A DNA stretch of 64,000 bases from Alphaproteobacteria bacterium (GTDB taxonomy: Bacteria; Pseudomonadota; Alphaproteobacteria; RF32; CAG-239), in NCBI GenBank assembly GCA_017528205.1, contig JAFXPE010000032.1:225517-289516 (forward strand), in the 5' to 3' direction. The notes beneath the pieces were generated by a model. The model saw only the letters and a program-made list of their open reading frames with translations, ran no database searches and was not told the origin of the DNA. Each line of letters begins with the position of its first letter. The stretch's first letter is position 1. The position numbers and the translations under genes are program-made. Below, piece by piece: positions 2,771-43,883 of the stretch.

Positions 2771-3090
2771 CACAACTTCCTTTAGTTCAGGCCACAAACA
2801 AAAAAGCCGCTTAAAAAAGCGACTGGAAGTTGGTAACAATGTATAGATATTGTGCGACATATTAGCCATAACCGGCATACATCTCGCGAAAAATATATGT
2901 AGTTTTAAAACGGCGTATTTTGCCGCCTTCCAGTCATATACCTTATATACACGACCGGCAGACGCGCAAATATTACGTCTATGCATTTTTCTATACAGAG
3001 GCTACCACACCCCGAACAGGCCTCCCTGTCTATCAACATCATAAGACAGATATTTAAAAGTGTCTAGTAAAAATTAGCGGATATCAATAT

Positions 3091-3175
3091 AAACACCGAT
3101 TAAGCTATTTGAGTTTTGTAAAGCGCGGCGTATTCGCCGTCATACCCGACCTGTTCGGATATCTCCGGCAGAATA
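3091..3175 (-). pseudogene. Orphan 3' fragment of an ABC exporter gene (encodes ...LPEISEQVGYDGEYAALYKTQIA*)
   Basis: About 26 of 28 nt are identical to the 3' end of the intact ABC exporter gene at 6848-6875 (ttttataaagtgcggcgtattcgccgtc). The peptide matches that gene's C-terminus GEYAALYKTQIS. There is no start codon or upstream gene body. Confidence 0.3.
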
Positions 3176-3182
3176 AAACAAA

Positions 3183-3213
3183 AAACGCCACCGTTTGTAG
3201 ATGGCGTTTTTTG
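3183..3213. terminator. Bidirectional rho-independent terminator candidate
   Basis: aaaaacgccaCCGTTTGTAGAtggcgttttt forms a GC-rich stem (acgcca/tggcgt) flanked by A-run and T-run. It sits immediately 3' of the minus-strand ankyrin gene. Confidence 0.5.
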
Positions 3214-3223
3214 CGGCTGAAAA

Positions 3224-4327
3224 TTATCTTCCGCGGCCGGTTTGCACCACATGTTGCTGACCGTCACGGGTTGTGGTTACGGTGTATGTATCGATAACCG
3301 TTTTGTGATAGCGATGGCCGATACCGTAACCTTTGCGCCGACTTTTATGCACGACTTGCGTGCCGATTTCTTCCGGTACCAAATACTTTTCATGCGGCTC
3401 GCGCAACAATAGTTTTGCCTTAACCGTCGGATGCACGGCATAAGGATTGACCGCCGTGGTGTCTTTGCTGCCGTCTTCATTGGTGGTAATTTCCATACCG
3501 GCCGGAAATTCGTTGCCATAGCCGCCGATAATGTAAATTTGCTCGCCTTTTTCGTTTTGGTGAACATCTTTACCCATGTAAACGTAACCCAAAGCGGCAC
3601 GCATTTCCTTGACGTAGCTTTCGGCCAGTTGGTTATAAGTTTCTTTAACCTGATTCGCAAATTTATCCACTTCGGAATTGCCGCGTTGGCGCGAATTGTC
3701 GGTCGTCGGCTCGCCGAATTTGCGGGCAATCGTTTCCCATTCGGCATGGCCGCTGTTGAGTTTGGCTTTAAGTAAATCTACGGCGCTGATACCGCGTTTG
3801 TTTTCAATTTGGGTACGAATGCTCGACTCGCCCAACAAATACATGGCAACATCAAAGGCTTTTTGCGTGTCGGAACAATGCTCAATTGCGTTCATCAAGG
3901 CGGTGTTGCCAGATTTTTCACCCTGTGCGTTAACATCGGCGCCGTTTTCGAGCGCGGTTTTTACGCCTTCCAAATCGCCGCGTGCCGCCGCTTGCAACAA
4001 GGTTGCATCAACTTCACTTTGCATTTGCTTTAAGCTGTCGAGTGCTTGCTGATATTGCGTTAGGCGAAATTGATATTTTTCCCTAATCAGTTTGATTTTG
4101 GCAGAATCTGTGCGTCGCTCGGCATATTCCTGTTTTATGCACATATTTTCATAAGGCGAGGCCATAATCGAGTCTGCGGTCGGGTTACGTTTATGCACCA
4201 AATCTTTACCTTCCTGTTCCGGCGTTTTCAGCATTTCGTCACAGCTGGTCAAAGCCGAGCCGGCGGTAAACAATCCGCCCATAACAATGGCGGCTTGCAG
4301 CATTTTATTTTTCATTTCTTTTAACAT
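3224..4327 (-). CDS. Ankyrin-repeat lipoprotein
   Basis: The N-terminus MLKEMKNKMLQAAIVMGGLFTAGSALTSC has a signal peptide plus lipobox. The central region LLQAAARGDLEGVKTALENGADVNAQGEKSGNTALMNAIEH matches ANK repeats. An RBS gggaga lies 6 nt before the ATG. The C-terminal roughly 150 aa are unrecognised. Confidence 0.6.
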   Translation of the reverse strand: MLKEMKNKMLQAAIVMGGLFTAGSALTSCDEMLKTPEQEGKDLVHKRNPTADSIMASPYENMCIKQEYAERRTDSAKIKLIREKYQFRLTQYQQALDSLKQMQSEVDATLLQAAARGDLEGVKTALENGADVNAQGEKSGNTALMNAIEHCSDTQKAFDVAMYLLGESSIRTQIENKRGISAVDLLKAKLNSGHAEWETIARKFGEPTTDNSRQRGNSEVDKFANQVKETYNQLAESYVKEMRAALGYVYMGKDVHQNEKGEQIYIIGGYGNEFPAGMEITTNEDGSKDTTAVNPYAVHPTVKAKLLLREPHEKYLVPEEIGTQVVHKSRRKGYGIGHRYHKTVIDTYTVTTTRDGQQHVVQTGRGR

Positions 4328-4347
4328 GATTTTTCTCCCTTGCTTGT

Positions 4348-5334
4348 TTATTTATGTCCGCAAATCGTGTGTGAACGGGCTAAGTTTGTTGCCACCGTCA
4401 GATTTACGCTCGGATTTTGGCCGCGCGGTTTGCTTAATTCTACCGAGAATTGCAATCCGCCTTTGCCGACACCGCCGCGCACCGATAAGTCTCTGTCTTG
4501 GGTAATCACCGATTCGGCAATCGTTTTCCAGCCGCGGTTTAAGTCGTACCACGCCCGCGCTCCCAAGTTGCCGCAATGTTGCTTGGCGTCGTAATGTCCG
4601 AAGATTTTACCGCCGTAGGCCTTGCCGCGAATACCGATTGAGCCGAGCAATTGACGGTGTTCGTCGCCAATTCTGACGGCACCGGTCATATCCAGTTTAA
4701 CTCCGCTTTTTTCTAACAAGGTTACGCCGCATTTGGCCCAAAAGTCGGATTTTTTCAAATTCGGTATAACATAAAAGCCGTCGCCGGAATTACCGATTAT
4801 GCCGAGTTCAACGAACTCGCCACCTTTTTCGTAGCCGAATACAACACGGTTGCTGGCATTGCCGAAGCGCCCGATGTCATAGGCATCGGCATAATAACTC
4901 AAAGGCGAGTCAAAAACGGCTCCTGCCTCGGTGGCGGCACGTCCGGCCTTAAAGGTAATAACCGCGCCGTTGCCGAGTTGTTTGCCGAGTTCGGCCATAA
5001 ACTTAATGGTTAAAGAAGAAAAGGCTTCGTTGTTATAAATAATGCCTTCCTGTCCGGAAAGTTGTGCGTAGTCGCCTTTTTTATTTTCGATTCTGGCCAA
5101 AAACGACGGGGCAAAATCGTTGTAAAAGGTTGTTTTGCCGTCTTCGACGGTCAAACCAGATATATCTGCCGCGTCGAGTTTTAAGGTTATCCGCTCATTG
5201 TCGGCATCAGAATTTGTTTGCGCAGCCGGTTGCTCTTGCGCAGCCGCGGCCGTAGCGGTTAAAAGTAAGGTGTTAAGAACAAAGTTGCGTAAGTTAAAAT
5301 AGTCCATTACCTTACTGAAATTGTTGTTACTCAT
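4348..5334 (-). CDS. Secreted protein of unknown function; the intact member of a tandem paralogue family
   Basis: The N-terminus MSNNNFSKVMDYFNLRNFVLNTLLLTATAAAAQEQ carries a signal peptide. It is paralogous to 5376..6281 and 6387..6689 (shared ...GAENISALTVE..., YYAD..., FGY.KG..F.ELG.IG..GDGF.VIPN...FWA..G.TLLEKSG). Confidence 0.5.
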   Translation of the reverse strand: MSNNNFSKVMDYFNLRNFVLNTLLLTATAAAAQEQPAAQTNSDADNERITLKLDAADISGLTVEDGKTTFYNDFAPSFLARIENKKGDYAQLSGQEGIIYNNEAFSSLTIKFMAELGKQLGNGAVITFKAGRAATEAGAVFDSPLSYYADAYDIGRFGNASNRVVFGYEKGGEFVELGIIGNSGDGFYVIPNLKKSDFWAKCGVTLLEKSGVKLDMTGAVRIGDEHRQLLGSIGIRGKAYGGKIFGHYDAKQHCGNLGARAWYDLNRGWKTIAESVITQDRDLSVRGGVGKGGLQFSVELSKPRGQNPSVNLTVATNLARSHTICGHK

Positions 5335-5375
5335 TGTATTTCTCCTAATTTGTTAATGATAAAATTCTTCAATAA

Positions 5376-6281
5376 TTACTTGTTCGCAGTTTGAAAACGC
5401 GGCAAATTTGCGGCAACCGCCAAATTAACATAAGACGGTTGGTCTTTGGGTTTTCCGTATTCAACCGAAAATTGCACGCCGGATTTATCGGTATCGCCGC
5501 GAATATATAAATTGCAGTCCTGATTGAGTACCGATTTGGCAATCTCACTCCATCCGCGGTTAAAATCTTCCCAAGCGTGCAAACCGATATGGCTCTTGTT
5601 TGCGGCAAAATCATAGTTGCTAAAGCGCATGGCATCGATTCCGCTCTTTTCCAGCAAAGTTAAACCGCTTTGGGCCCAAAAATCGGCATATTTCGGATTA
5701 GGTATCACCAGAAAACCGTCGCCGTTTTTGCCGATGGCGCCCAGCTCAAAAAATTGGCGGCCTTTTTGGTAGCCGAAGACTAATCTTTCAGCGTTGTCTG
5801 CCGTTTTATAGGCGTTACGGGTATCGGCATAATATTCCAAAGCGTAATCAAACAGCTCGGTACCTTCGGTTTTTGGGCTTCTGGCCTTGAAAAAAATGTT
5901 TCCTCCTTTGCCGATTAACCTGCCGAGTTCCGACATAAATCTGGATGTTAAGATGCTGAAATTTTTATCTTCCAAAATTAAGACTTCCGTCGCTTTAAGT
6001 TGCGCATAATCGTCACGCTCGTTTTCGGCGCGTGCGGTTTTATTAGGTCTTAAGTTGTTGTAAAACACGGTTTTATCCTACTCAACGGTCAACGCCGAGA
6101 TGTTTTCTGCGCCAAGCGTCAAAGTCAGCTTGTCCGAACGGACGTCAAAATTGTGTTGCGGAACGTTTTGTTCCTGAGCAAAAGCCGCGGTTGTCGCGGT
6201 CAGCAATAAAGTTTTCAAAACAAGTTTGCATAAATAAAAATTTTTAGTTTCCTGCGTACAGGGGTGGGGGTCATCACTCAT
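5376..6281 (-). pseudogene. Paralogue of 4348..5334, interrupted by an in-frame TAG stop at 6075-6077
   Basis: ORFs 6078..6281 and 5376..6068 are in the same frame and are separated by a single TAG (…LTVE*DKTVFYNN…). Together they align with the full length of the intact paralogue. Confidence 0.5.
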
Positions 6282-6386
6282 TTTTTCCTCCTAATCTTTG
6301 AATGACAATTGTTACCAAAAAAACAATCCGTATCTGAATAATTATGCTTCATCAGTGATCGGAAGCGCACGAAAGGCGTGCGAATT

Positions 6387-6689
6387 TCAATGTAATGAAA
6401 CTCGGTTGGTTTGAAGTATTCTTCCCCCGATGGCCGTGCGTAATCGTTGCGCCCTGTTATTAGGCACAATCAGATACGGTCTTAAATCATCAGAAATGGT
6501 AATTTTGTTTTGATTAAGAGTAAAAGCGGCAATATTTTCCGCACCAAGAATTAAAATCGATGAATGTTTTATATCATCTGAAATAATTTGCGAAACTTTT
6601 TGTTCCTGTAATTGAACCGCAGAAGCGGTCAGTGTTGAAATTTTGCGAATGAAACTCGTCACCTTACAGGGGTGGGGGTCATCACTCAT
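6387..6689 (-). pseudogene. Truncated N-terminal remnant of the same paralogue family
   Basis: It starts with the same MSDDPHPC leader and the same 5' DNA (ggagg-T-run-atgagtgatgacccccacccctgt) as the gene at 6281. Similarity to the family stops after about 60 aa. Confidence 0.4.
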
Positions 6690-6721
6690 TTTTTTCCTCC
6701 ATAGTTGTTAATGACAAGTTC

Positions 6722-6750
6722 AGTATATTATAATTTTGTAAATTTGTCAA
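6722..6750 (-). promoter_or_regulatory. Sigma70-like promoter (TTGACA-17-TATACT) reading toward the remnant gene at 6689
   Basis: The reverse complement of 6722-6750 is TTGACAaatttacaaaattataaTATACT. Confidence 0.4.
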
Positions 6751-6839
6751 TATATGTACGAAAAAAATATTTTTTGTCACATAACACGTGCAAAATATCA
6801 AATTCTATCAAAGGGTTAGAAACATAAAAAAGTTGTTGA

Positions 6840-8786
6840 TTAACTGATTTGTGTTTTATAAAGTGCGGCGTATTCGCCGTCTTTCGCCAATAGTTCTTCG
6901 TGAGTGCCGCGCTCTACAATTTCGCCGTTGTTCAAAACCACGATGCAATCGGCGTTTTTAACGGTAGAAAGTCGGTGCGCAATAATCAACACCGTGCGGT
7001 CTTTCATCAAGTTATCGATAGCCTGTTGCACGATTTTTTCGGATTTGTTATCCAGAGCCGAAGTCGCTTCGTCCAAAATCAAAATCGGCGCATCTTTCAC
7101 AAAAGCACGGGCAATGGCAATTCGCTGTTTTTGCCCGCCCGAAACCAAAACTCCGCGCTCGCCGATTTGGGTATCCAGCCCGTCGTCAAGCGAGGCGATA
7201 AACTCGTCCAAACACGCCGCTTTGAGAATTTTTTGCAGCTGTTTTTCCGATACATCTTTTCGACCCAACAGAATGTTGTCGCGAATGGTGCCGCCAAACA
7301 AAAAATTATCCTGAAAAACAATGGCAATATTGTCGCGCAAGCTTTGCAATTCAATGTCTTTAATATTGATGCCGTCAATTTTAATTTGTCCCTTTTTAAT
7401 GTCATAAAAACGCGGCAACAAAGTGGATATGGTCGATTTTCCGCCGCCGGAATTGCCCACTAAGGCAATGGTTTGTCCGGCTTTAATGTTTAAGTTTATG
7501 TTTTTCAGCACTTGCTTGTTTTTATCATAGGCGAAAGACACATCTTTGTAAGTTATGTTGCCTTTGCAATTTTCAAGCACCTTTGCGTCCGGTTTGGATT
7601 TTATTTTTTGCGGTGCTTGCAACTGTGTTATAATGCGATCCACGGCGATAAAAGACATAACAATCGAGCTGGCGTTGTTGCCGATTGATTTAATCGGGTT
7701 GTACAGCATCACCAGCGAAGTAATAAACGAAGCAAAATTACCGACGGTGATTTGCTGGCTGACAATCAAATAACTGCCGTACCAAATTACGAAGGCGATG
7801 CCCAGCGAAGAAATAGTGTGCATCGACGGCGAAATTATGCCGGTTTTTTTGGTCATACGAATCATAATGTCAAATACATCGTTGACGGTGCTGGAAAATT
7901 TTTGTTTGCAATAATCCGGCAAATTATAGGCGGCGATAATGCGGTTGCCGCTGAAAGCTTCGTTATAATCTTTCATCAACTTGGTCATAACGCTGACATT
8001 TTGATTTACCGCCGATTTTAAACGTTTGCGCACTCTTGTCAGCGGCATTAAGGCACCAAACAATACAATAACCGCCACAATTGCCAATTGCCATGAATTA
8101 TAAAACAATACAACCAACAGCGACAATGAGGAGAATAAGCGCGTAGAAAATAGGCGTATACTGTTTAATAAGCCCCCACAAGCTATTTCGGCATCAGTAT
8201 TAAAACGCATCTGTACATATCCGGAATCGCGCTTGTCAAAAAAACTGGCATCTTTGTGCAGTAACTTATTAAACAACTGCTGCTTAACATTCAAAGAAAT
8301 TTTATCGCCCACCCAAGTGTTCAAATAGGTTGCCGTATAAGTAAAAAGTGCCTGCAAAATGCTGAAAGCGATAATCATCAGCGGAATATACATGGTCCAA
8401 CCGGTTTGTTTTTCAACCAAAACCACGTCCATAAACGGCTTTAATGACCAAGCGATAACCGCGTCCATCGAACCGATCGGAATGGTGATTAAAATTGCCA
8501 ACAACAGTCGGCCCCAATAAGGCTTGATGAAAGGCCACATCTTTTTGTAACTGTCCAAAGACTTGATGTTCATTTGCGGTTTGTGCCGGCTGAACCATAA
8601 AAACAGCGGTGCCCCGATTAACCAAGTCAGCACATACAAACCGGCAATCAGCGAAAAACGGTTGATTTCCCACGATTCGCCTTCAAGCGGCAAGGTATCG
8701 CTTTGCCAAAACGGATAGGTGGCGCACAAAATACCGGCTAAACCGAACAAAAACGAGGATATGGCGTTAAAAATCTTCATAAACAT
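6840..8786 (-). CDS. ABC exporter, fused permease and ATPase (MsbA/ABCB type), with an extra N-terminal hydrophobic extension of about 70 aa
   Basis: Walker A is GNSGGGKST, the signature is LSGGQKQRIAIARAF, and Walker B is ILILDEATSALD. A 6-TM exporter core begins around MNIKSLDSYKKMWPFIKPYW. The RBS aaagga lies before the first ATG. Confidence 0.8.
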   Translation of the reverse strand: MFMKIFNAISSFLFGLAGILCATYPFWQSDTLPLEGESWEINRFSLIAGLYVLTWLIGAPLFLWFSRHKPQMNIKSLDSYKKMWPFIKPYWGRLLLAILITIPIGSMDAVIAWSLKPFMDVVLVEKQTGWTMYIPLMIIAFSILQALFTYTATYLNTWVGDKISLNVKQQLFNKLLHKDASFFDKRDSGYVQMRFNTDAEIACGGLLNSIRLFSTRLFSSLSLLVVLFYNSWQLAIVAVIVLFGALMPLTRVRKRLKSAVNQNVSVMTKLMKDYNEAFSGNRIIAAYNLPDYCKQKFSSTVNDVFDIMIRMTKKTGIISPSMHTISSLGIAFVIWYGSYLIVSQQITVGNFASFITSLVMLYNPIKSIGNNASSIVMSFIAVDRIITQLQAPQKIKSKPDAKVLENCKGNITYKDVSFAYDKNKQVLKNINLNIKAGQTIALVGNSGGGKSTISTLLPRFYDIKKGQIKIDGINIKDIELQSLRDNIAIVFQDNFLFGGTIRDNILLGRKDVSEKQLQKILKAACLDEFIASLDDGLDTQIGERGVLVSGGQKQRIAIARAFVKDAPILILDEATSALDNKSEKIVQQAIDNLMKDRTVLIIAHRLSTVKNADCIVVLNNGEIVERGTHEELLAKDGEYAALYKTQIS

Positions 8787-8942
8787 CCTTTCATATCGGC
8801 AAACAATATAAAATATTTTTTTGCGTATGACAATAAAATATTTATTATTTATCGGCGCTTGGCGAAAGCTTGAATTTTTTATGGAAATTTAAAATAAATA
8901 CGATATATTGGTATACAGCTTAATCAATAAAAGGAGAGTAAA

Positions 8943-9935
8943 ATGAGTCGTATCAATGATGTTTTCTATTCTGATATTTACATCACACCGGATAAATTGG
9001 TGTTTGTGCCGGATCCGCATACCGAAAACGGGTTGATACAGATTAAGCCGGAAGATTTCGATACCTTCTACGATTTGTTGGAACGTTCGTTTACCGGTCG
9101 TTCAAGTTATTCGATTGTTTATGAAGGATATTTTTTCCGTGTTGAGCGCACAATGTCTTTATACGGCGTAATGTTCTGTATGCGTAAAATGCCGAAAAAA
9201 GTTCCGGATTTAACCACCCTTGGTTATCCTCCGGCGTTGATTAAATATCTGTCCACACTCGGCAGTGCTTGCGGACTGATTTTATTGGGCGGTGCCACCG
9301 GTTCCGGTAAAACTACGACCATTTCCAGTCTGTTGCGCGAATATCTGGTGCGCAACGGCGGTTTTGCCTACACCATTGAAGATCCGTTCGAAATGCCTCT
9401 AGACGGTGAATATCAAGCGCTTAACGGCTCAATAGGTATGTGCAAACAAACTCAGCCGCTTAACGATGACTGGGGTGCTGCGTTGCGTTCGGCCTTGCGC
9501 TCGCGTCCGCGCTATATATTTGTGGGCGAAATCAGAACACCGGCTACGGCCAGCGAATGTTTGCGTGCGGCAACTTCCGGACACTTGGTGCTTTCTACCA
9601 TTCACGCTAACAACGTTACCGATGCGCTTGACGCCATTGTTAAGCACGCTTCTGCCGGTGAAATGAGTGAAGAACTGGCATTCGACTTGCTCTCTCGCGG
9701 TATTTTGGGCGTTATTCACCAACAACTTATCGGTACCGGTCAAAAACGTCCGGTGGTGCAATTTTTGTTCGCTAACCCTAACACCACGCAAGGCGACCAA
9801 ATGCGCAACATTGTTAAAACCGGCAAATTAAACTTGGCAACCACCATTGAAATGCAAATGACGCGTATGGCGCAAGGCCGTCCGTTGTTTGACATAAGCG
9901 ATTCATATAATTCGAAATCTTCGATAGTCGGGTAA
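8943..9935 (+). CDS. PilT/PilU-family (DotB-like) hexameric secretion or retraction ATPase
   Basis: Walker A is GGATGSGKTTT. Other matches are YTIEDPFE (PilT ITIEDPIE), ALRSALRSRPRYIFVGEIR (the Asp box region) and ATSGHLVLSTIHAN (the His box). The RBS aaaggagagtaaaATG is strong. Confidence 0.7.
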   Translation: MSRINDVFYSDIYITPDKLVFVPDPHTENGLIQIKPEDFDTFYDLLERSFTGRSSYSIVYEGYFFRVERTMSLYGVMFCMRKMPKKVPDLTTLGYPPALIKYLSTLGSACGLILLGGATGSGKTTTISSLLREYLVRNGGFAYTIEDPFEMPLDGEYQALNGSIGMCKQTQPLNDDWGAALRSALRSRPRYIFVGEIRTPATASECLRAATSGHLVLSTIHANNVTDALDAIVKHASAGEMSEELAFDLLSRGILGVIHQQLIGTGQKRPVVQFLFANPNTTQGDQMRNIVKTGKLNLATTIEMQMTRMAQGRPLFDISDSYNSKSSIVG

Positions 9936-9951
9936 GGAAAATTTACTAAAT

Positions 9952-10500
9952 TTATTGAAAAGTCCAAATCAGCGTGTTGTTTTCAACCGTGCATAATTTG
10001 CGCGTGGTATAACGTTTAATCGGCAACGGATGCGCGTCGTCTCCCCAAGCAAACTCGGAAATGCCGTTTTCGTTGATTAGGGTAATTTTTTGCAAACCGA
10101 GTTGCTGTTTATGGCTGACGGAAAGCTCGCTTAAATTTATGCAGGCCGATTTGTTGAGGTTTTTCAGCACGATATCAAAGCTGTTGTCATTTGGCATAGA
10201 AACATCACCGTTTTCGCCTTGGCCGATTTTCAGATTGTCAGCGTTTTTCAACAATTCTTCGACAATCAGACCGTCATCTTTTGCCGATTCGGTGGAAAGT
10301 TTCCAGTATGCCGGTTTGTCGCGATAATAGCTGCGGATATTTTCTGCGGTTTTGAATATCTGTTTGTGCAAGTCCTGATGCGGATTATGAAACAAAACAT
10401 AACTCAGGGTAATGCCGGCAAACAGCAGGCAAATTGCCAATACCAAGCCGTTGACTCCGCTCATGTGAACTTTTCGCAAATTCAGATATACTTTGTTCAT
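9952..10500 (-). CDS. Pilin-like / pseudopilin-like small protein (candidate type IVb pilus subunit)
   Basis: The start was chosen at MNKVYLNL (ATG 10498-10500), immediately after the GspF stop. It has a hydrophobic N-terminal segment, GVNGLVLAICLLFAGITLSYVLF, and a C-terminal Cys pair (ACINL...CTVEN) like a pilin D-region. No canonical G/FxxxE processing site was seen. Confidence 0.35.
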   Translation of the reverse strand: MNKVYLNLRKVHMSGVNGLVLAICLLFAGITLSYVLFHNPHQDLHKQIFKTAENIRSYYRDKPAYWKLSTESAKDDGLIVEELLKNADNLKIGQGENGDVSMPNDNSFDIVLKNLNKSACINLSELSVSHKQQLGLQKITLINENGISEFAWGDDAHPLPIKRYTTRKLCTVENNTLIWTFQ

Positions 10501-10504
10501 GCCG

Positions 10505-11623
10505 CTATTTACCCATGTTGCTGGTGATTTGGTCTTGCATGTCGAAGGTTCCGAACACGGCCCAAGCAATAATACCGGACACGAACAGCATGGCGATAAT
10601 GTTCATCACTTCGGCCTTTTGTTCAATCAAATAAACGGATTCTTCCAACCACTCGTTGGCCAATTTATCCAAAGCCTCTTCAAAGTTATCCAACTCGGAA
10701 TACACCTTCAAGTCGGCGATGATTTGCTTATCCGGAAATTCCATTCTGGCCTTAGACAATGCCTGACCAAGGTTATCACCGTTTTTAATGTGGAATAAAG
10801 CGCCGTCGATACGCTCACGCAAATAGTTGCTGGCGTCTTTGCGCAAAGAAGTTAAGGCAACGGATACCGGCACACCGCCTTTAACCAAAGCGGAAAGCGC
10901 CAAAAGCCAAGTAATACCCGTAAAAATCTTATACAGCGACCACGGCGGGCAACGGTCAACTTTTACCCGAAGTTTACCGGTCCAAATACCGATGGTAAGA
11001 TAAATGGTTAAGCCGATAACCGGCAAAACTGCAAAGGCAAACGCCCAGTTTACCTGAATCCACGCCGACAAATTAACCAAGGAACGCGCCGTTCCCGTCC
11101 ACACGGTGTTAGGTGCGGCACTCAGCATTGGCGGCACCATGTAAACACCGATGGCGTACAAAATCAAAACCGCCATCATCATCAAGAATGACGGGTAGGC
11201 AATAGCGCTGACAATCGGTCTAATCATTCGTTGGGAGCCTTCGGCCACTTTAATAAGGTTTAATAATGCACTCTCCAAGTCGGAAACATCGCCCACGGAA
11301 AGCATCAAGCGCTCACGGTCCGGAGCCCAGCCTTTTAAGGCATCGGAAAACGGATGACCTTCTTGCAACGAGCGTCCCCACGAGCTGACGGCAATTGCCA
11401 TCGGTTCGTTCGGGTGTGCACCTTCTTCCGAAATACCGCCGTAAATCATATCCAGAGAATTCATCAAAGAAAAGCGGTTGCGCAACAAGGCCGCCAATTT
11501 ACGATATATTTTTAAGCGCCCTTTATTTGATAAATTGCACATAAATTTTGCATACATGAGCAACCATTTGTTGGTTGTTCCCATTGCGCGGTTAAAGGCA
11601 CTTTTCCTCTTAATCTCTGGCAT
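10505..11623 (-). CDS. GspF/PilC-family inner-membrane platform protein (R64 PilR-like)
   Basis: Length is 372 aa with three hydrophobic segments. It has the GspF-type cytoplasmic domains (…LDMIYGGISEEGAHPNEP…LSVGDVSDLESALLNL…). Confidence 0.75.
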   Translation of the reverse strand: MPEIKRKSAFNRAMGTTNKWLLMYAKFMCNLSNKGRLKIYRKLAALLRNRFSLMNSLDMIYGGISEEGAHPNEPMAIAVSSWGRSLQEGHPFSDALKGWAPDRERLMLSVGDVSDLESALLNLIKVAEGSQRMIRPIVSAIAYPSFLMMMAVLILYAIGVYMVPPMLSAAPNTVWTGTARSLVNLSAWIQVNWAFAFAVLPVIGLTIYLTIGIWTGKLRVKVDRCPPWSLYKIFTGITWLLALSALVKGGVPVSVALTSLRKDASNYLRERIDGALFHIKNGDNLGQALSKARMEFPDKQIIADLKVYSELDNFEEALDKLANEWLEESVYLIEQKAEVMNIIAMLFVSGIIAWAVFGTFDMQDQITSNMGK

Positions 11624-11636
11624 TTTTTATCCACTC

Positions 11637-13346
11637 CTAATAAATCGGGCGTTGATCCAGCAATCCGCACCAACGTTCAACTTCGTCCAAGTCAATATAT
11701 CCTTTAAGCATACGCTCAATTGCCGCTTCACGCAACGGCCGTCCGTTTAATTCACTTACCCAGTAGTCAATTGCTTCTTTGGTTTCGCCTTTAATCAGCA
11801 ATTGCAAGAAATGGGCATCAGGCAAAATAATTTCCGGCACGGACATACGTCCGACCACACCCTTGTTGCCGCAGAATTTGCAGCCCGGACCTCTGACATA
11901 AGTATTTTCAATACCGTAATCTCCCAAAGCCGTTTCCAAACGCTTGAAAGACGGATCGGAAATACGCTCTTTTACGGAAAGCCGGCAATACGGACAAATT
12001 TTTCTAAACAAACGTTGCGAAATAAGTCCTTTCATAATTTCCGGATCTTCCAACATATAAGATTGTACGCCCATATCGCGCAAACGCGTAATAATGGCCG
12101 GCGCGGAGTTGGCGTGCAATGTTGACCACACACTGTGGCCGGACAAGGCGCCACGGAACACCAAGTTGGCCGCCGAAAGTGTACGAATTTCACCGACCAT
12201 AATCACGTCCGGGTCGGAACGCAAGGCGGCAGACAAGGCTTTGTTGAATGCTTCATCTTTTTCTTCTTCGGTGCTGGCATTGGTAACCGGCATTTGCCGT
12301 GCACCCGGAATCGGATACTCTGGCGGGTCTTCCACGGTAATTACGTTAATTTCGTTATTATGTTCTTGCAACAGCTTAATCATGTTGCGTTGCAGGGTTG
12401 TTGACTTACCGGAACCCGTCGGACCGGCAATAATTTTCAAACCCGTGGCGCTGGCGCGTAAACGATAGAACAAATCAATTTCTCTGTCGCCCAACCCCAA
12501 AGAACGCAAATCACTTTCGCCGTTCGGGTTATCATCGGCGTAAAGCAAACGCATAACCAAATATTGCGAACCGAAAGCTACCGGATTGAATTGCAAACGA
12601 ATAGCCAAAACGTTGTGCGGAAGTCGCAACTTTCCGTTTGTACCGCGCAATGGGGTGGAACCCAGCTTTTGCGCGCCCTGAAACTCGTTTTGCGCGTAGT
12701 TGGCATCAGAAATATCTGCCGAAGCAAACGCCGCACGAACAAAGGCTTCGCCCCATTCTTGCGAATACTCCAATTCGCGCTCCATCATACCGGCGCGGCG
12801 AAAATATACCACGGAAGAATTGCCCACAATAACGTGAATATCGGAAACCTTACTCATTGCTGCACGACTTATCACGCTTAAAAAGTCGATTTGCATTTGA
12901 TAATCGGTGGTTTCTTCCGCCGAAATATTGATTTGACCGGTACCGCGTTCGGCAAAAGCGTAAATGGCCGACAATTCCGCGGTTGAAATATAGCGCGGCT
13001 CCGCTATTAAGACTTTGCGCCGCTTCATGGTGGCGGCAAAGTTCAGCACCTTACCGTCAAAACGGTGCGTTTCATCTACCAAATATGTGCCGTCGGAGAA
13101 CAGGGCAAGCATACGCCGTGTTTCGTTATCAACGGCAATTTCGCCGTCCTCCAAGGTCAGCAAATGGTTATCATGTGCAAAAAGTTGTTCGAAAAGATTT
13201 CCGCTTTTTTTATCGGAACCCTGATCGGAAGATGTATCTATGTCTGAGGTCTTGTTTTCGGTGGTCGTAACAGCAGTAGACTTATCGGCCTCGGTTGCGG
13301 CCGATAAGTTCTCTGCATCGGTTTCTTTCTTTTTGCTCTCAAACAT
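11637..13346 (-). CDS. GspE/PilB-family type II/IV pilus assembly ATPase (R64 PilQ-like)
   Basis: Walker A is GPTGSGKSTT, the Asp box is VEDPPEY, the His box is ALSGHSVWSTLHAN, and the tetracysteine motif is CPYC...CKFC. It has an acidic N-terminal extension. Confidence 0.85.
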   Translation of the reverse strand: MFESKKKETDAENLSAATEADKSTAVTTTENKTSDIDTSSDQGSDKKSGNLFEQLFAHDNHLLTLEDGEIAVDNETRRMLALFSDGTYLVDETHRFDGKVLNFAATMKRRKVLIAEPRYISTAELSAIYAFAERGTGQINISAEETTDYQMQIDFLSVISRAAMSKVSDIHVIVGNSSVVYFRRAGMMERELEYSQEWGEAFVRAAFASADISDANYAQNEFQGAQKLGSTPLRGTNGKLRLPHNVLAIRLQFNPVAFGSQYLVMRLLYADDNPNGESDLRSLGLGDREIDLFYRLRASATGLKIIAGPTGSGKSTTLQRNMIKLLQEHNNEINVITVEDPPEYPIPGARQMPVTNASTEEEKDEAFNKALSAALRSDPDVIMVGEIRTLSAANLVFRGALSGHSVWSTLHANSAPAIITRLRDMGVQSYMLEDPEIMKGLISQRLFRKICPYCRLSVKERISDPSFKRLETALGDYGIENTYVRGPGCKFCGNKGVVGRMSVPEIILPDAHFLQLLIKGETKEAIDYWVSELNGRPLREAAIERMLKGYIDLDEVERWCGLLDQRPIY

Positions 13347-13356
13347 ATTCTGATTT

Positions 13357-15159
13357 TTACCTCACGAACATCCCCTTACCGAAACTCGGCAAGCTGTAAG
13401 AATCTTCACTGCTTGAACCGCTCTTCTTTGATGAAGAAGACTTATTCTTGCTCGAAGACGACTTAACAGAAGAACTGCTCTTGGTAGAGCGAGCGGCCTT
13501 GGTCGGGCTCTTGCTCTTTGAAGCTCTTGACTTTTTGCCGGTTTCGCTCAGCTTTTCCTGCGCCTTCTTTGAATTGTCGTCGGCCTTCGGGGATACACTT
13601 TCATCATCATCGTCATCGCCTTCCATATCTATTTTGGACATGCCGTGAGAGTCTTCAGGCTCGAAGTCCATCGTAATACTTCCCGGGTACAGGTAGCTGC
13701 GGTCGCCGTCCGGAGATTCAAAGATAACGTATTTTTCGGTGATTGAAGTTACAACCGAACCGTCTTTCATTACGGTACCCTTGCGAACGATAAATTCCTT
13801 AACCTGATCACCGCTTGTATTTTGCAAGTCAACCAGTTTGGCAACCAACTCACTGTCATTACCGATAATTTCTTCAATGGCGTAGAATTTGGTAATATCC
13901 TTGTCTTCTTTAACCGGAACTTCATCAAAATTAAAGTCATCATAATTGACTTCTTCGGTAACGTCTTTAACCACAGTACCCTTAAACGGATTAGCGGCAG
14001 CCTCTTGCAATTGCTTTTGCAAATCTCTGATTTTGATGTTGCTTTCACGCAATTCAACACGCAAGTTTTTAATTGAGGTCTTAAGGTTATCGATTTTGCT
14101 GTTAAGCTTTGATACAACCTCAATATGCTTGTCGGCGGCGGCCTGAGCCTGCTCATGAACCTTCAAAATATCGGCACCGAGCGTTTCCATTTTAACCTTA
14201 AAGGTTTCAATCAACTCAACGCGCTCGTCTTCAAGCTCGTGAATCCGATTTTGCAACTTGGCATTTTTCTCCACCCATTGCTGATTCATTATGAGCATTT
14301 CGTTCATATAATCGTTTATAACTTTGGCCTGTCTTAATTTTTCGAGCTCGATTTCTTTTTCTTTTAATTTTCTCTCTTCTTCCAAAATTTTGGCCTGACG
14401 AGCAATTTCTTCTTCTTGAATTTTGGCTTCCAAAGCTCTCTTGCGCTCGGCTTCTTCTTCAAGCATCTTGGTGCGCATTTGGCGCAAAGTAATAACCTGA
14501 TTCTTTAATTCCTCACGCTTTAATTCCAAACGCAGCAAAGTGGTTTGCTTTTCAATGCGGGACATTTGGTTGAACAAATTGTTGTCAACCTTTGAAAGAA
14601 TGGCATTACCGAAACTCTCCAACGGAGATTTAGGAGCTTCCGCGGCCGGAATTTCCGAACCGTCTTCGCCCACGGTCAAATCGTTAAAGTCTTCGGCAAT
14701 CGGAGAATCTTCGGCAAACGGATCGCTGTTATCAATAGGCAATTCGTCGTCCACTTGCAACGGATCGGCGTCTAAAAGCGGATTGGTCGCCGAAGGATCA
14801 CCTTCGGCTTGCAAGTCGGCACCTTCCTCATTTGGCAACGGATTTTCGATATCCAAGTCCTTGAGTTCGTCTTCCACCTGCTTAATTTCCGAATTCAATT
14901 TGGCAATATCGGCCAAAGCCGCGGCTTCTTGTTCCGAAGCGTTTTGCAAAGCTTTGTTTGCGTCTTCGGCAGCATTTTCGACAGCCTGCGGAGCCTCAAC
15001 CGAGTCGACAACATTTTCAACGGCGGACGGCGGAGTTGAATTTTCTGCGTTTGCGGCAACATTATCGTCTGCTGCAAAGCACGCACTGTTTACGGCCAAC
15101 GCAAATGCAAAAGTCAATGCAATTACGGCCACAGTCTTATTTTTCAAATTACAATTCAT
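13357..15159 (-). CDS. Secreted coiled-coil protein with an extremely Ser/Lys-rich C-terminal tail; pilus-cluster component of unknown role
   Basis: The start was chosen at MNCNLKNKTVAVIALTFAFALAVNSACFA (RBS gaaggag 7 nt upstream). The protein has an acidic Pro/Asp region, long heptad-like E/K/L stretches, and a tail ...SKSKSPTKAARSTKSSSSVKSSSSKNKSSSSKKSGSSS. Confidence 0.4.
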   Translation of the reverse strand: MNCNLKNKTVAVIALTFAFALAVNSACFAADDNVAANAENSTPPSAVENVVDSVEAPQAVENAAEDANKALQNASEQEAAALADIAKLNSEIKQVEDELKDLDIENPLPNEEGADLQAEGDPSATNPLLDADPLQVDDELPIDNSDPFAEDSPIAEDFNDLTVGEDGSEIPAAEAPKSPLESFGNAILSKVDNNLFNQMSRIEKQTTLLRLELKREELKNQVITLRQMRTKMLEEEAERKRALEAKIQEEEIARQAKILEEERKLKEKEIELEKLRQAKVINDYMNEMLIMNQQWVEKNAKLQNRIHELEDERVELIETFKVKMETLGADILKVHEQAQAAADKHIEVVSKLNSKIDNLKTSIKNLRVELRESNIKIRDLQKQLQEAAANPFKGTVVKDVTEEVNYDDFNFDEVPVKEDKDITKFYAIEEIIGNDSELVAKLVDLQNTSGDQVKEFIVRKGTVMKDGSVVTSITEKYVIFESPDGDRSYLYPGSITMDFEPEDSHGMSKIDMEGDDDDDESVSPKADDNSKKAQEKLSETGKKSRASKSKSPTKAARSTKSSSSVKSSSSKNKSSSSKKSGSSSEDSYSLPSFGKGMFVR

Positions 15160-16393
15160 AAATTTCTCCTTCGTATGTCCATGTTGCGTTGTTAACATCA
15201 TATGTTATATTTGTAATCTTTAAACCTGAAAATTTCATTAACAAGTCTATCCAAATAAACGGATCGTTGTTTGAGGTAATGTTGAACCCCATCAGTTTAT
15301 ATTGCGTACCGCGCGGCGATACCCAAGTCTTCGGGTTGAAAGATATGTTGATATCCAAGGCCTGATTAATATCGTTCAAGGTATCGATTAAATCATCTTC
15401 TTCGTATTCCGGCGGAGAGTTAAGGGTTTTGGCCTTTTCAACCGGAACGGTTACCATCACCGTGTTACCGTCACGGCTCAAAACGCGAGATGTAAATTGC
15501 ACGCCGGAAACGTCCAAAGCCTGTTCAATCCAGGTTAAACGTCCCAAATCGCGCTTCCACGAAGTAACCAAACCCGAATCCGGAGTGCAGGTAACGCCTT
15601 CCAAACTCCAGCCCGGAGTAACCACTTCAACCACCTTTTGTACGGCCGTGTAGCAATTGCGCATTACATCAACCGGATTTGGTAGCTCTTCCCAAGGTTT
15701 AGGCTCAGGCGGCAATTCTTCCTGTTCCACCTGTTCCACCGGCGCAATAATCGGAGTTTCCGGTGCCGAGAAGAACAAATCTTTCAAAGTGGAATAAGCA
15801 AACCACAAAATAATGGCAAAGCAGGCAACGATTACCGCCAACATAATGGTATCGTTGCTGCCGTTAATCTTATCAAGTCTGACCTGCAGACCTCTTTTTA
15901 ACAAAGCGTCGAGTTCGGAATGTTTGGTATCTTCGATTGCCCATTCTTCCGGTGCAAAAATTGCATCCCAATCCGGCACCGCCAACATGGAAATAAATTG
16001 GTTTTTGGCGTCGCGCTCGTTGATGAACAGGGTATCACCGTCAGAAAGAATAACGTCGTTTCTGTAACAGATGTACCACCAACCGGTATCTACCTTGAAA
16101 ACGCCCAAGAAAGACGTAACATTGCCCAATCCGGAAATTAAGGCAACTGCGGCCGAAGGCAATCCTTTGGTAAAGCCTTGCGAAGATGCGGCCAAACCGA
16201 ACTGCGGTGACTTACCCTTACGGACAACGTATAAATCCGCGCCCTCTAAGATGTTTTCTGCCGCTTCTTTGACTTCCGGTAAAGGCTTGTCTTCATTTAA
16301 CAGCGGCTGCCAAAATAAACTGGCCGCATACGTCGTGTCGCCTTCTTTGAAGGTCGATTTCCAAGCCTTTTCTTCAGTTTGTGTATCGTCCAC
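15149..16393 (-). CDS. Bitopic pilus-assembly protein (cytoplasmic domain, one TM, periplasmic domain; GspL/BfpC/R64 PilO-like architecture)
   Basis: About 190 aa of soluble N-terminus are followed by a single TM (IMLAVIVACFAIILWFAYSTL) and about 200 aa of periplasmic sequence. It lies between the secretin and the ATPase, as in type IVb pilus operons. Confidence 0.35.
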   Translation of the reverse strand: MDDTQTEEKAWKSTFKEGDTTYAASLFWQPLLNEDKPLPEVKEAAENILEGADLYVVRKGKSPQFGLAASSQGFTKGLPSAAVALISGLGNVTSFLGVFKVDTGWWYICYRNDVILSDGDTLFINERDAKNQFISMLAVPDWDAIFAPEEWAIEDTKHSELDALLKRGLQVRLDKINGSNDTIMLAVIVACFAIILWFAYSTLKDLFFSAPETPIIAPVEQVEQEELPPEPKPWEELPNPVDVMRNCYTAVQKVVEVVTPGWSLEGVTCTPDSGLVTSWKRDLGRLTWIEQALDVSGVQFTSRVLSRDGNTVMVTVPVEKAKTLNSPPEYEEDDLIDTLNDINQALDINISFNPKTWVSPRGTQYKLMGFNITSNNDPFIWIDLLMKFSGLKITNITYDVNNATWTYEGEIYEL

Positions 16394-16425
16394 GAGCGTT
16401 CTCCTTTGTCAAAATCTTATTTAAA

Positions 16426-18075
16426 TCAGTCTCTCATTCTGGATTCCGGTGATAACGGGGATTCCATAACCACTGGAGTTAACATAATGATTAAGAGATC
16501 TCTTTTTCTGCTGGCCGATTGTGAGCCGCCCGGGAACATGTTGTCCGGAGAGCCGACACCGGATTTTGAGATTTGATCTTCGGCTCTTTCAAATCCGGCA
16601 AGTACCAACGTTTCACCCGATTTCATCGCCACTTCCTGTGTAAATCCGCGGGTGTCTACGATAGGTTGCTGTACTTTTGCATTTCCGACGGCATACTCAT
16701 TCAAGTCTAACAATTCGGCCAAAGTCAGGTTAAAGAAGACCATCAAACGACCGTGAGCCAAAATTCTCGGCAATACACTCATCATAACACCGGTTGAGAA
16801 AGTACCCGGATCGATTTCGGCTTCGGAGGTGCTGCTTCCCTCGGAAGTAGACTCTATGGATACCTTTTTAACGTAAGAGTGTAATGTTGTGGCTTGAATC
16901 GGTGCCGGTTTATTGTTCATGGTTATAACCGTGCCGGTCGTGACCACATGGGTTTCACCGCTGCTTGACAAGGCGTCAAGTGTTGCGCTGATATCAAAGT
17001 TGCCGCTGACAAGGCCCATACCAAATCGGCTGTAAGTCGGATCTTTAACGACATCAGGACCGTCCATTCCGATATTTCTGTAGCCTTTTAAGCCGGCCTC
17101 ACCTTTTTTGAAGGCAGCTGCCAAATCAAACTTGAAGTTATCGCTGTCATCCATAGAAACTCTCATAATCTTTACGTTGATGGCAATTTGTCGCGCCAAA
17201 CGGTCGTTTTGCTCATTAATATACTTCGAAACTTGGCGAATTTCCGTCGGAGTTGCCGTAACGGTAATGGTGCCGGAACTCTTGTTCAGAGATACGCCGT
17301 CCGAGTTGCTGACCATTTTTTGAACAGTTTCGCCTATTTCTGTCCACAAGTCGATGCTTTCCAAGTTATTTTCCATGGTGAGCTCGCTACTACTGTCGGA
17401 GCTACTGCCGGAATCACTTTCACCGCTTGAAGATGCGTTTGCCGACAAAGATAAGTTCATCGACGGAGTAGTCGGCAATGCGTGCAAAACAAAAGTTTTG
17501 GTAATATACTTATAGAAGTAAACTTCATTCTTTTCATATTTCCACCAAATGCCAAAGCGATTGGCAACTTCGTCCAACAAGCCGCTGAGCGGACCTTTGT
17601 AGTTAACTACCATTTTTTCGCTGGTGGTCCACAAGCTACCGAAATCGGAAATTTTCGGCGCATTGTCGTCAGCGTCTTCATATACTTTCAATCGGCTTTC
17701 ATTTTCCCCTTCTCCTGTAAACTCCGGAGCATAACGCACGGCAATGGAGGTTATTTTGCTCAGCATGGTACCGATTTCAAACAACGTAATCGGTCGGTTG
17801 CTAACCAAGGTAACGCCGTCTTTGGCTTCCAAATACGCCGGAATCGGCTGACCTTCAAATTCCACGGTGGAAGTATCGCCGAGCCAAATATCGTCTTTAA
17901 CCCGAACCACATCATCCGGAACCGGTTCGTTAGGTACGGTTGCTTGTTGTTTAATATCAAGCACATCTTTGGTGCGTTGCGCCATCTCGGCTTCCATATC
18001 CGGTGCTATAGAACAGGCAACGGTTACGCCGACAGCGCCGAGAATTATAAGTTTCAACAAATTAATCATACGCAT
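16426..18075 (-). CDS. Secretin (outer-membrane channel), probably a lipoprotein as in R64 PilN / BfpB / TcpC
   Basis: The N-terminus is MRMINLLKLIILGAVGVTVAC (a lipobox-like VTVAC). The C-terminal secretin domain ends ...GETLVLAGFERAEDQISKSGVGSPDNMFPGG...RKRDLLIIMLTPVV. Confidence 0.7.
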   Translation of the reverse strand: MRMINLLKLIILGAVGVTVACSIAPDMEAEMAQRTKDVLDIKQQATVPNEPVPDDVVRVKDDIWLGDTSTVEFEGQPIPAYLEAKDGVTLVSNRPITLFEIGTMLSKITSIAVRYAPEFTGEGENESRLKVYEDADDNAPKISDFGSLWTTSEKMVVNYKGPLSGLLDEVANRFGIWWKYEKNEVYFYKYITKTFVLHALPTTPSMNLSLSANASSSGESDSGSSSDSSSELTMENNLESIDLWTEIGETVQKMVSNSDGVSLNKSSGTITVTATPTEIRQVSKYINEQNDRLARQIAINVKIMRVSMDDSDNFKFDLAAAFKKGEAGLKGYRNIGMDGPDVVKDPTYSRFGMGLVSGNFDISATLDALSSSGETHVVTTGTVITMNNKPAPIQATTLHSYVKKVSIESTSEGSSTSEAEIDPGTFSTGVMMSVLPRILAHGRLMVFFNLTLAELLDLNEYAVGNAKVQQPIVDTRGFTQEVAMKSGETLVLAGFERAEDQISKSGVGSPDNMFPGGSQSASRKRDLLIIMLTPVVMESPLSPESRMRD

Positions 18076-18763
18076 TTTCGTCCTCCAATGTTTCAATTAC
18101 CAAAACGCGGTTACCTTTATAAAAAGTTGCTACCGGAGCCGGTTTGGCGCGAGCAAAAGCTCTGACCAGTGCAGAAGCCACATCGGCAAAACTGCCGCGG
18201 AACATAGCACCGGCATTCAAAGTGTAGTTACGGTTGGTTTTCCAAATCAACCGCCATCCGGCTTCTTCACTCCACAAGTTGAGCAAGTCACGCAAGCTTT
18301 GGCCTTCTTCCGCCAACCAATCGCCGTTCGGATCATCTCCGGCCATATCTTGCGGATTGGCTTCCGGACCGCTGGCAAACGGAGCCACGTTGCCGACATT
18401 GATTTCCTGTTCGACAACTTCATCGTTGATATCCGGAATAACCACAGCGGAAATATTGTTTCCGGCACCTGCCTGTGTTACACGATGATCACGCGGCGTG
18501 CGTTCTCCGTATGCACGGAAGTCCGCGGCGTTTCGCGTGTAATTTACCGGACCGTTGGGATCGGTGCACTCGCTGTAACCGTCGGCATTTTCAACACAAA
18601 CAGCGTTATATTCCTGATTGCTGGTACAAATTCCGTCGGCGCAAACTTCGCCACCGTAGTAGTCTCTGGAGACATAACATCCGGTTGTACCCAAAACGCA
18701 GCATAACAAGCCGGTAAGCATCAATCTGTTTGTCATTATATTTCTTTCTCTATATTGTTTCAT
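18062..18763 (-). CDS. Lipoprotein of the pilus cluster (PilL/PilM/TcpQ-like position)
   Basis: The signal and lipobox read LMLTGLLCCVLGTTGC. An RBS aggaa lies 7 nt upstream. It sits immediately upstream of the secretin. Confidence 0.4.
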   Translation of the reverse strand: MKQYRERNIMTNRLMLTGLLCCVLGTTGCYVSRDYYGGEVCADGICTSNQEYNAVCVENADGYSECTDPNGPVNYTRNAADFRAYGERTPRDHRVTQAGAGNNISAVVIPDINDEVVEQEINVGNVAPFASGPEANPQDMAGDDPNGDWLAEEGQSLRDLLNLWSEEAGWRLIWKTNRNYTLNAGAMFRGSFADVASALVRAFARAKPAPVATFYKGNRVLVIETLEDENAYD

Positions 18764-18804
18764 CGTATTTTCCTATAACACAGGTTAAAACTGAAATCAT
18801 ATCA

Positions 18805-20409: not shown

Positions 20410-20671
20410 ATTAAAATCCTGTTGAATCAATGCAAACCGCCGTTTTTAGGCGACAGTTATCCCACTCTTTTGGTTGAAGATACAACGGATAATGTTAAAA
20501 TACCGTTAATAGGCGGAATAAAGTTGCACAACGCCTAAAAAAACACTTTGCAAAATGCAGCAAATATAATTTTTACGATTTATTTACCAAATTCATATAA
20601 TAATAACGTGTATTTTTATAATGCACATCGTGTGAACCGTCGAATAAATAGGAAAAAACGGACGATTGTTC

Positions 20672-43881: not shown

Positions 43882-43883
43882 GT

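Follow-up and report, generated by a model that had tools for sequence, protein, structure and literature searches.

The minus strand of a 64,000-nt stretch from an uncultured alphaproteobacterium (GenBank assembly GCA_017528205.1, contig JAFXPE010000032.1, positions 225,517 to 289,516; "the window" below means this whole stretch) carries three related open reading frames (ORFs) in tandem, at 6689..6387, 6281..5376 and 5334..4348. The locus is quite probably an operon for outer-membrane porins in a bacterium of the rumen or gut, with a leader ORF derived from a gene fossil in first position. One strong promoter would read this 100-codon leader ORF (the small ORF), a first porin gene (porin A, the middle gene), a second porin gene (porin B) and the gene of an ankyrin-repeat lipoprotein, and transcription would then end at a terminator. 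The small ORF and porin A open with the same 24 nt, and this common leader is likely, though with less assurance than the operon itself, to be a translational control element of some kind. The elements of the locus are the following.

6722..6750, minus strand: promoter TTGACA-17-TATACT, sigma-70-type (TTGACA at 6750-6745, TATACT at 6727-6722)
6690..6721, minus strand: conserved 5' untranslated region of the small ORF, with a CTTGTCATTAACAAC motif, a Shine-Dalgarno (SD) sequence GGAGG at 6700-6696 and a 6-nt A-rich spacer to the ATG
6666..6689, minus strand: leader copy 1, ATGAGTGATGACCCCCACCCCTGT (MSDDPHPC), invariant in eight lineages, both Pro codons being CCC
6387..6689, minus strand: putative 100-codon leader ORF, comprising the signal peptide and the first one or two beta-strands of a porin paralogue
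6282..6386, minus strand: intergenic region with a hairpin, conserved blocks, a ATCATTCAA motif and an SD sequence GGAGG at 6291-6287
6258..6281, minus strand: leader copy 2, identical to copy 1, opening the middle porin gene
5376..6281, minus strand: middle porin gene (porin A), an apparent pseudogene in this strain, its 301-codon frame otherwise open
6078..6080, minus strand: in-frame TAG at codon 68 of porin A, CAG (Gln) in contig L137 and Gln or Glu in orthologues
5622..5636, minus strand: junction of the in-frame deletion (5 + 24 amino acids) in porin A, common to the relatives L137 and L138
4348..5334, minus strand: intact porin gene (porin B), 328 amino acids, with a Sec signal peptide (AAA/QEQ) and a predicted 16-stranded beta-barrel
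3224..4327, minus strand: ankyrin-repeat protein with a lipoprotein-type signal (...ALTSC)
3178..3214, minus strand: strong intrinsic-terminator-like hairpin of 15 pairs followed by a T-run

Organization of the operon

The promoter, which an initial annotation of the region had already called near-consensus, scores 11/12 and is the top promoter match in the scanned 6-kb region (window 3000-9200). It is near-identical across all syntenic relatives. About 10 nt upstream of its -35 element lies a T-run (6761-6767, minus strand) of seven residues in the window, six in L137, a 98%-identical contig, and five in distant relatives; this A/T-rich run adjoins a conserved GACAAAAAA motif and is the only homopolymer length difference seen. 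Independent rumen metagenome-assembled genomes (MAGs) and metagenome contigs share one arrangement: an ABC exporter, an ORF of 99-101 amino acids, a gene of 331-332 amino acids, a gene of 327-330 amino acids and, usually, the ankyrin-repeat protein.

The ankyrin-repeat gene begins 20 nt past the porin B stop codon, and most relatives have it in synteny; on these grounds it probably closes the operon. The sole convincing terminator, at 3214-3178, lies past this gene and likely marks the end of the operon. A 6-bp hairpin between the small ORF and porin A (CGCACG-CCTTT-CGTGCG, 6382-6366) lacks a U-tract, and no Rfam family was found in the window at the gathering threshold. The third gene does not carry the MSDDPHPC leader; it retains only an upstream TCATTAAC...GGAG motif, and its start shows no conservation whatever among relatives. 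Weighing against the operon as proposed is the kind of evidence for two of its features, in that the translation of the small ORF and the co-transcription of the genes are deduced from sequence.

The porin family

The initial annotation had described a tandem triplet of secreted-protein paralogues, the intact one of beta-rich look; the three genes are indeed paralogues with export signals and are beta-rich. The full-length genes encode proteins with a Sec signal in which A-x-A/Q follows the hydrophobic core in 32 of 32 aligned members; the hydropathy of the core is 1.7-2.0. The intact 328-amino-acid protein and the middle copy are 50% identical. The family is rare: a word-indexed search gave 25 matches, and a full hidden Markov model (HMM) scan of 1.84 billion cluster representatives gave 38 representatives, the weakest of which (P0071, E 3.5e-4) is an unplaced 1053-residue "surface anchored protein". 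The ten representatives whose source was looked up all come from MAGs of uncultured Alphaproteobacteria or from metagenome contigs.

The assignment to the porins comes from a structural model. An AlphaFold2 (AF2) model built on a diverse 32-sequence alignment, whose diversity came from the HMM profile search, has 16 beta-strands, a predicted local distance difference test score (pLDDT) of 77.5 and a predicted template-modelling score (pTM) of 0.72. Its neighbours in a Foldseek search are OmpU, the Rhodopseudomonas blastica porin and OmpC (E 1e-8 to 1e-9, template-modelling scores 0.56-0.64), so that the outer-membrane location which the initial annotation had guessed for the intact paralogue led, in the fold search, to porins. 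The motifs YYAD, FGY.KG and GDGF.VIPN, which the same annotation had singled out, are conserved among the relatives. YYAD lies at the expected place in a loop modelled between strands 5 and 6, which covers the 27 residues 134-160, is helical at 146-158 and has a pLDDT of 57-63.

The family was compared with the general porins OmpU (6ehb), OmpF/OmpC/OmpK36, Omp-Pst1 (4d64), PorB (3a2s) and those of R. blastica and Rhodobacter (1prn, 3por). It shares with them the 16 predicted strands, about 300 mature residues, the Sec signal peptide and, in the model, a long loop after strand 5 that contains a short helix and lies where the constriction loop L3 is found. It differs from them in its tiny size as a family, in a sequence identity of 6-13%, and in a basic C-terminal tail in place of a terminal aromatic residue.

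Several observations weigh against the porin assignment, which depends on a predicted structure. A first AF2 run on a shallow alignment of 26 close homologues reached a pLDDT of 43.5 and was unusable. The proteins have no C-terminal aromatic residue and end in ...ARSHTICGHK or, in distant members, in ...GGSRKL. No porin model of Pfam matches the family; neither Pfam nor NCBIfam gave a significant match for the window proteins of the array or for any of the 32 family members, a profile search of the PDB gave none for the family, and PADLOC gave none for the porins or the small ORF. Weak matches to Pfam T7_gp14 and NCBIfam TraK were far under the cut-offs and were discarded. Because a match to a curated family and the C-terminal aromatic residue are absent, the assignment rests on the predicted fold together with the export signal. 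On this basis the proteins are modelled as outer-membrane porins of the general type that belong to a sequence family undescribed in the libraries. They are under ordinary purifying selection, with ratios of non-synonymous to synonymous substitution (omega) of 0.09-0.19 and synonymous divergences (dS) of 1.0-1.7. A function is hereby proposed for a protein family which the databases do not recognize, and its members may be the main outer-membrane pores of this group of uncultured rumen and gut Alphaproteobacteria.

The small ORF

The small ORF aligns solely to the N-terminal ~80 residues of the porins, with 34% identity, and small ORFs match the porin profile at E 6e-5 and 2e-4. Beyond the leader, the small ORF and the middle gene are 52% identical in nucleotides, and the value is the same within and between genomes; the duplication is therefore old, and gene conversion, considered as the source of the leader identity, was rejected on the same ground. 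To judge from these alignments, the small ORF is an ancient truncated porin paralogue that has kept the signal peptide and the first hairpin.

The initial annotation took the array for a series of steps in the decay of duplicated genes. In the plainest form of this reading the small ORF would be dead, evolving neutrally and surviving only as the carrier of the promoter. Stepwise decay fits the middle copy only, as discussed below; it does not fit the small ORF, which is open at 97-103 codons in every relative, behind the same promoter. The ORF is kept at 99-103 codons in eight nucleotide lineages and in all of twelve protein clusters defined at 90% identity. All three of its indels are multiples of three, and frame 1 contains no stop codon where the other frames contain 7-12. 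With at least 210 substitutions on the tree, 4.1% of them stop-creating, the probability of a stop-free frame under neutrality is at most 1.6e-4. Moreover, each codon position has diverged about half as much as the synonymous sites nearby, and the C-terminal RRFS persists despite codon changes. Some features are what a dead remnant would show: the homology limited to the porin N-terminus, a signal-peptide core less hydrophobic than that of the porins (1.2-1.6), a flat codon-position profile, omega intervals that often include 1, and sister-clade equivalents of 97-167 amino acids that look degenerate. Taken with the conserved frame, they leave a dead ORF improbable.

A second alternative is that the small ORF encodes a functional small protein, for instance an envelope or porin-assembly factor, and is not a translated leader. 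Its conserved frame and length would agree with this, as would the conserved blocks NIAA.TLNQNK, DDLRP and RRFS and an omega below 1 in some pairs (e.g. 0.43, confidence interval 0.22-0.75). The typical signature of a coding sequence is nevertheless missing. Divergence at the three codon positions is 0.25/0.23/0.31 in the small ORF, compared with 0.21/0.13/0.43 in porin A and 0.18/0.13/0.45 in the second porin. With the leader excluded, omega lies at 0.4-0.8 and its confidence interval frequently spans 1; the small-ORF proteins are only 54-57% identical between lineages whose porins are 64-83% identical. Nor was a family or structure match found for the small ORF (Pfam, NCBIfam). Synonymous sites are unusually conserved, with a dS of ~0.5 versus 1.0-1.7 in the adjacent porins, and they are so along the whole length of the ORF, not in the leader alone, which indicates a constraint at the RNA or DNA level. 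Neither an overlapping ORF nor an Rfam family explains the low synonymous divergence. A small functional protein is thus unlikely, if a little less so than a dead remnant.

The small ORF, then, has kept its frame and length, its amino acids are weakly constrained and its nucleotides evolve more slowly than neutral ones. The simplest reading is that ribosomes must cross the frame and that the product matters little, while RNA or DNA is under moderate constraint. An apparent dead remnant can accordingly be a stably conserved and probably translated leader, and conserved short fragments of paralogues should not be labelled pseudogenes in annotation.

The leader shared by the small ORF and porin A

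Two exact copies of the 24-nt ATGAGTGATGACCCCCACCCCTGT exist in the window (6689-6666 and 6281-6258) and none in 100 shuffles; the duplicated 5' end which the initial annotation had noticed is real. Together with its upstream part, the shared leader is made up of an SD sequence, an A-run and the codons ATG AGT GAT GAC CCC CAC CCC TGT. The one-nucleotide difference in spacing between ribosome-binding site and ATG, also noticed earlier, is likewise real: 6 nt lie between the SD sequence and the ATG of the small ORF, against 5 nt in the case of the middle gene.

Selection on the nucleotides of this short sequence is unusual. In four genomes, both genes carry exactly the same block AAAAAATGAGTGATGACCCCCACCCCTGTA. 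Over eight lineages, no invariant stretch of the small ORF is longer than the 24-nt run, which has undergone one point change in the middle gene; for eight consecutive invariant third positions the probability is ~1e-6. The leader stays near-invariant among genomes in which the dS of neighbouring genes exceeds 1. Its Pro codon is also unusual, since CCC accounts for 7 of 592 Pro codons in the window ORFs (1%) and is the rarest of them, compared with 79% for CCG. CCC-C and CCC-U near start codons are contexts prone to +1 frameshifting, and a +1 shift in the leader would end translation after MSDDPTPV in six of the eight lineages.

Leader copies were surveyed on 16 contig stretches from roughly ten independent assemblies. 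Among the 31 copies fitting the pattern, C5-A-C4 and point variants of it are the only forms, without any length variation. In a 32nd copy, from the middle gene of L012 (CCCCTACCCC), a C-to-T point change replaces the A and the length is unchanged. The variants amount to three point changes in total; GAT CCCC in L139 and L140 still fits the pattern. Middle genes always have a 5-nt spacer; that of the small ORF is 6 or 7 nt, depending on the lineage and constant within it.

In a sister clade (L014, L016; P0057, P0062, P0065, P0070) the promoter-proximal ORF begins with MDDDPVPR or MGDDPVPR. The leader differences between L014 and L016 are synonymous, which argues that the peptide M-x-D-D-P-x-P is conserved as well. 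Asp, Glu and Pro make up four of the six residues after Met in SDDPHP and five of six in DDDPVP, a count of at least four that is reached in none of 38 other N-termini of the window. Enrichment of these residues in the six positions after Met is the N-terminal criterion for intrinsic ribosome destabilization (IRD; Chadani et al.; bioRxiv 10.1101/2021.02.02.429294). Sequences of the MgtL type (MEPDPT) abort translation early in a Mg2+-sensitive manner and regulate mgtA (bioRxiv 10.1101/2021.02.02.429294).

These features suggest, as the preferred mechanism, a model in which the acidic and proline-containing N-terminal peptide, read via very rare CCC codons, would make early elongation abort or stall. 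Abortion or stalling would answer to the state of the ribosome or the tRNA pool and set the expression level of the operon; ribosome transit through the fossil ORF would be required for downstream expression, and the first porin gene would have received a duplicate of this sensor. That the truncated paralogue is in this way a translated leader, gating the operon through an mgtL-like sensor of ribosome or tRNA state in slippery CCC contexts, is offered as a tentative proposal that is more likely wrong in its particulars than right. It draws on an analogy. Like mgtL, the window ORF has an acidic and proline cluster directly after Met (MSDDPHP and MDDDPVP versus MEPDPT), is a short promoter-proximal ORF upstream of envelope genes and has a conserved start while the rest of the ORF drifts. 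Unlike mgtL with its 17 codons, it has 100 codons and derives from a porin paralogue, its leader also heads a full-length porin, and checks of folding, covariation and C>G bias showed neither alternative RNA structures nor a Rho site. The resemblance to mgtL is one of functional analogy and not of membership. Were the model correct, the making of a leader-peptide attenuator out of a gene fossil would be a new route to such an element, and it would be the first one proposed for alphaproteobacterial porins.

About equally possible are a pairing in cis with the SD sequence and an antisense target for a small RNA (sRNA) in the stretch GAUGACCCCCACCCCUGU. Porins are commonly regulated by sRNAs, e.g. 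in the pairs MicF/ompF and MicC/ompC (PMC5745476), and in Burkholderia the translation initiation of a porin is under sRNA control (NcS25/BCAL3473; PMC10117139). As in sRNA-targeted porins, the nucleotide conservation is confined to the SD sequence, the start codon and the first codons, the usual landing site. In contrast to them, the target in the window is rich in C and would need an unusual G-rich seed. For pairing in cis, one RNAalifold structure joins the SD sequence (UGGAGG) to the C-tract, and its support consists of conservation only.

A number of results weigh against control by the leader RNA or peptide. Single-sequence folds of the two leader RNAs are no more stable than those of shuffles (z +0.79 and +0.28), and the RNAalifold leader structures contain zero compensatory pairs. 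An RNA complementary to the leader was not found within the 64-kb window, to which that search was confined. The small ORF has no rut-like C>G bias. The Pro codons of the sister clade vary (CCT, CCA, CCG), so that the use of rare codons is not universal.

A scan of metagenomes for GGAGG-N4-10-ATGAGTGATGAC proved too unspecific, with unrelated MSDD starts among the matches listed. The high-GC metagenome contig L129 contains ATGAGTGATGACCCC four times (positions 281, 1246, 2705 and 5184), in a repeat beside an ORF resembling a RAYT (REP-associated tyrosine transposase); these are chance partial matches to the leader, unrelated to the porin locus.

The initial annotation had also raised the possibility of a contingency locus with ON/OFF switching of the paralogues. 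Such switching would come from slippage of the C5AC4 tract or of the A/T run that separates the SD sequence from ATG. Phase variation is typical of surface porins; porA and opa of Neisseria and hop of Helicobacter are phase-variable outer-membrane protein genes. The window locus resembles these in its surface paralogues, in a repeat-like C-rich tract within the first codons and in strain differences in the ON/OFF state, which extend to near-identical strains. The spacers of the two copies differ by 1 nt, and there is one true homopolymer length difference, T7 versus T6 (at 6767, in the run upstream of the -35 element). Arguing against this possibility is the tract itself, which is short and interrupted, with no run longer than 5 nt, and whose length is constant in the 31 copies, the exceptions being substitutions only. 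It is the most conserved stretch of the genes and not the most variable one. No variation of the spacer was seen within a lineage. The OFF state of porin A results from a C-to-T nonsense change 200 nt downstream of the tract. Phase variation is on these grounds very improbable.

The middle gene: an older deletion and a recent nonsense allele

The middle porin is full length and intact in the syntenic relatives. The window copy is short of ~29 amino acids relative to the intact gene, owing to two adjacent in-frame gaps of 5 and 24 amino acids, a deletion that had escaped the initial annotation. The deletion takes out most of the modelled strands 9 to 11, with a net loss of about one hairpin. 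In this species, according to the model, porin A has thus lost approximately one beta-hairpin by in-frame deletion.

The in-frame stop codon lies at 6080..6078, one codon away from the position 6075-6077 first assigned to it. Over 1.36 kb, contig L137 matches the window at 98.2% identity, and it reads CAG in place of the TAG. Five further changes in the window copy, all of them non-synonymous, are derived by comparison with L137 and L138 (G134R, S135, P136, T141 and R235H). G134R affects a Gly that is invariant in the family, one of only three residues, the start Met included, that are invariant in the 32-sequence alignment. Because of the CAG in L137 and of the derived changes, the loss of the invariant Gly among them, the middle copy is seen as a genuine and very young pseudogene that arose on top of the older in-frame deletion. 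By this comparison, porin A appears to have been knocked out in this strain alone, by a CAG-to-TAG change. In the initial annotation, a stop shared by all strains was to mark simple old pseudogenes; the stop is strain-specific, yet it is an ordinary C-to-T nonsense change. Loss of a porin by a nonsense change in one strain fits a common pattern, the inactivation of porins under pressure from phages, hosts or drugs.

It might be supposed that the TAG is rescued by readthrough or recoding, as had been suggested earlier, or that it arose in assembly or sequencing, and that the middle gene is really intact. The stop stands alone in an otherwise open frame, and over the long term the window copy retains an omega of 0.14-0.19. 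Every genome used is a MAG or a metagenome contig, a kind of data in which consensus errors occur; the TAG may therefore be such an error or represent a minority allele, and this weighs against a pseudogene. However, 8 of the window's 40 long ORFs end in TAG, which is therefore not reassigned, and no readthrough signal is evident. The five further derived changes in the same copy speak for relaxed selection and not for a lone base-call error. An intact middle gene is accordingly improbable, to about the same degree as a dead small ORF.

Copy number and recombination among relatives

Copy number and the ON/OFF state, which the initial annotation had proposed to compare, both differ across relatives. 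In L139 (1892-3288) and L140 (1831-3227) the small ORF is followed by a single porin. This porin is chimeric, in that it joins the leader of the middle gene (MSDDPHPS, GAT and AGT variants included) to a body of the third-gene type, which points to a change of copy number by recombination between the tandem paralogues. Strain-level differences at the locus thus arise by ordinary mutation and recombination.

In Brucella, omp2a and omp2b are linked and highly similar porin paralogues that exchange sequence by gene conversion. The window locus is comparable in that alphaproteobacterial porin paralogues are adjacent and one copy has an internal deletion. It differs in that its paralogues are ~50% identical and show no conversion outside the leader; the lineage of L139 and L140 does show a recombinant, with the leader of porin A and the body of porin B.

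Other forms occur in the sister clade. The RUG10829 MAG (L014, 3437-4420) contains a promoter-proximal, leader-bearing porin with an in-frame TGA at a conserved Trp (RGW to SG*), and porin-like sequence goes on past the TGA. P0065, a much more degenerate relative of 167 amino acids, stops at the same position. The other leader ORFs of this clade have 97-144 amino acids. These forms look like other stages on the same route by which a porin becomes a leader ORF. P0055, on a contig of 579 nt, is a middle-type gene that diverges after FYNDL.

Surroundings of the operon

The ankyrin-repeat lipoprotein at the end of the operon is an unusual partner for porins. Directly upstream of the porin promoter lies the ABC exporter (6840-8786, minus strand; ABC_membrane and ABC_tran), in conserved synteny. 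Next to the exporter is a type IV pilus-like cluster (8943-20430) with a PilT-like ATPase, a 569-residue T2SSE ATPase, T2SSF, an R64-type PilO domain and a secretin. A further region (22764-25193 and 39310-48071, plus strand) is type IV secretion-like and contains a VirB4/TrbE-family ATPase, and a neighbouring ORF of 1493 amino acids (31326-35807) has no Pfam match. The type IV secretion-like region also encodes two giant proteins, one of 1523 amino acids with beta-flower and RHS-like repeats and one of 1395 amino acids in which beta-flower repeats are fused to a TrbI/VirB10 domain.

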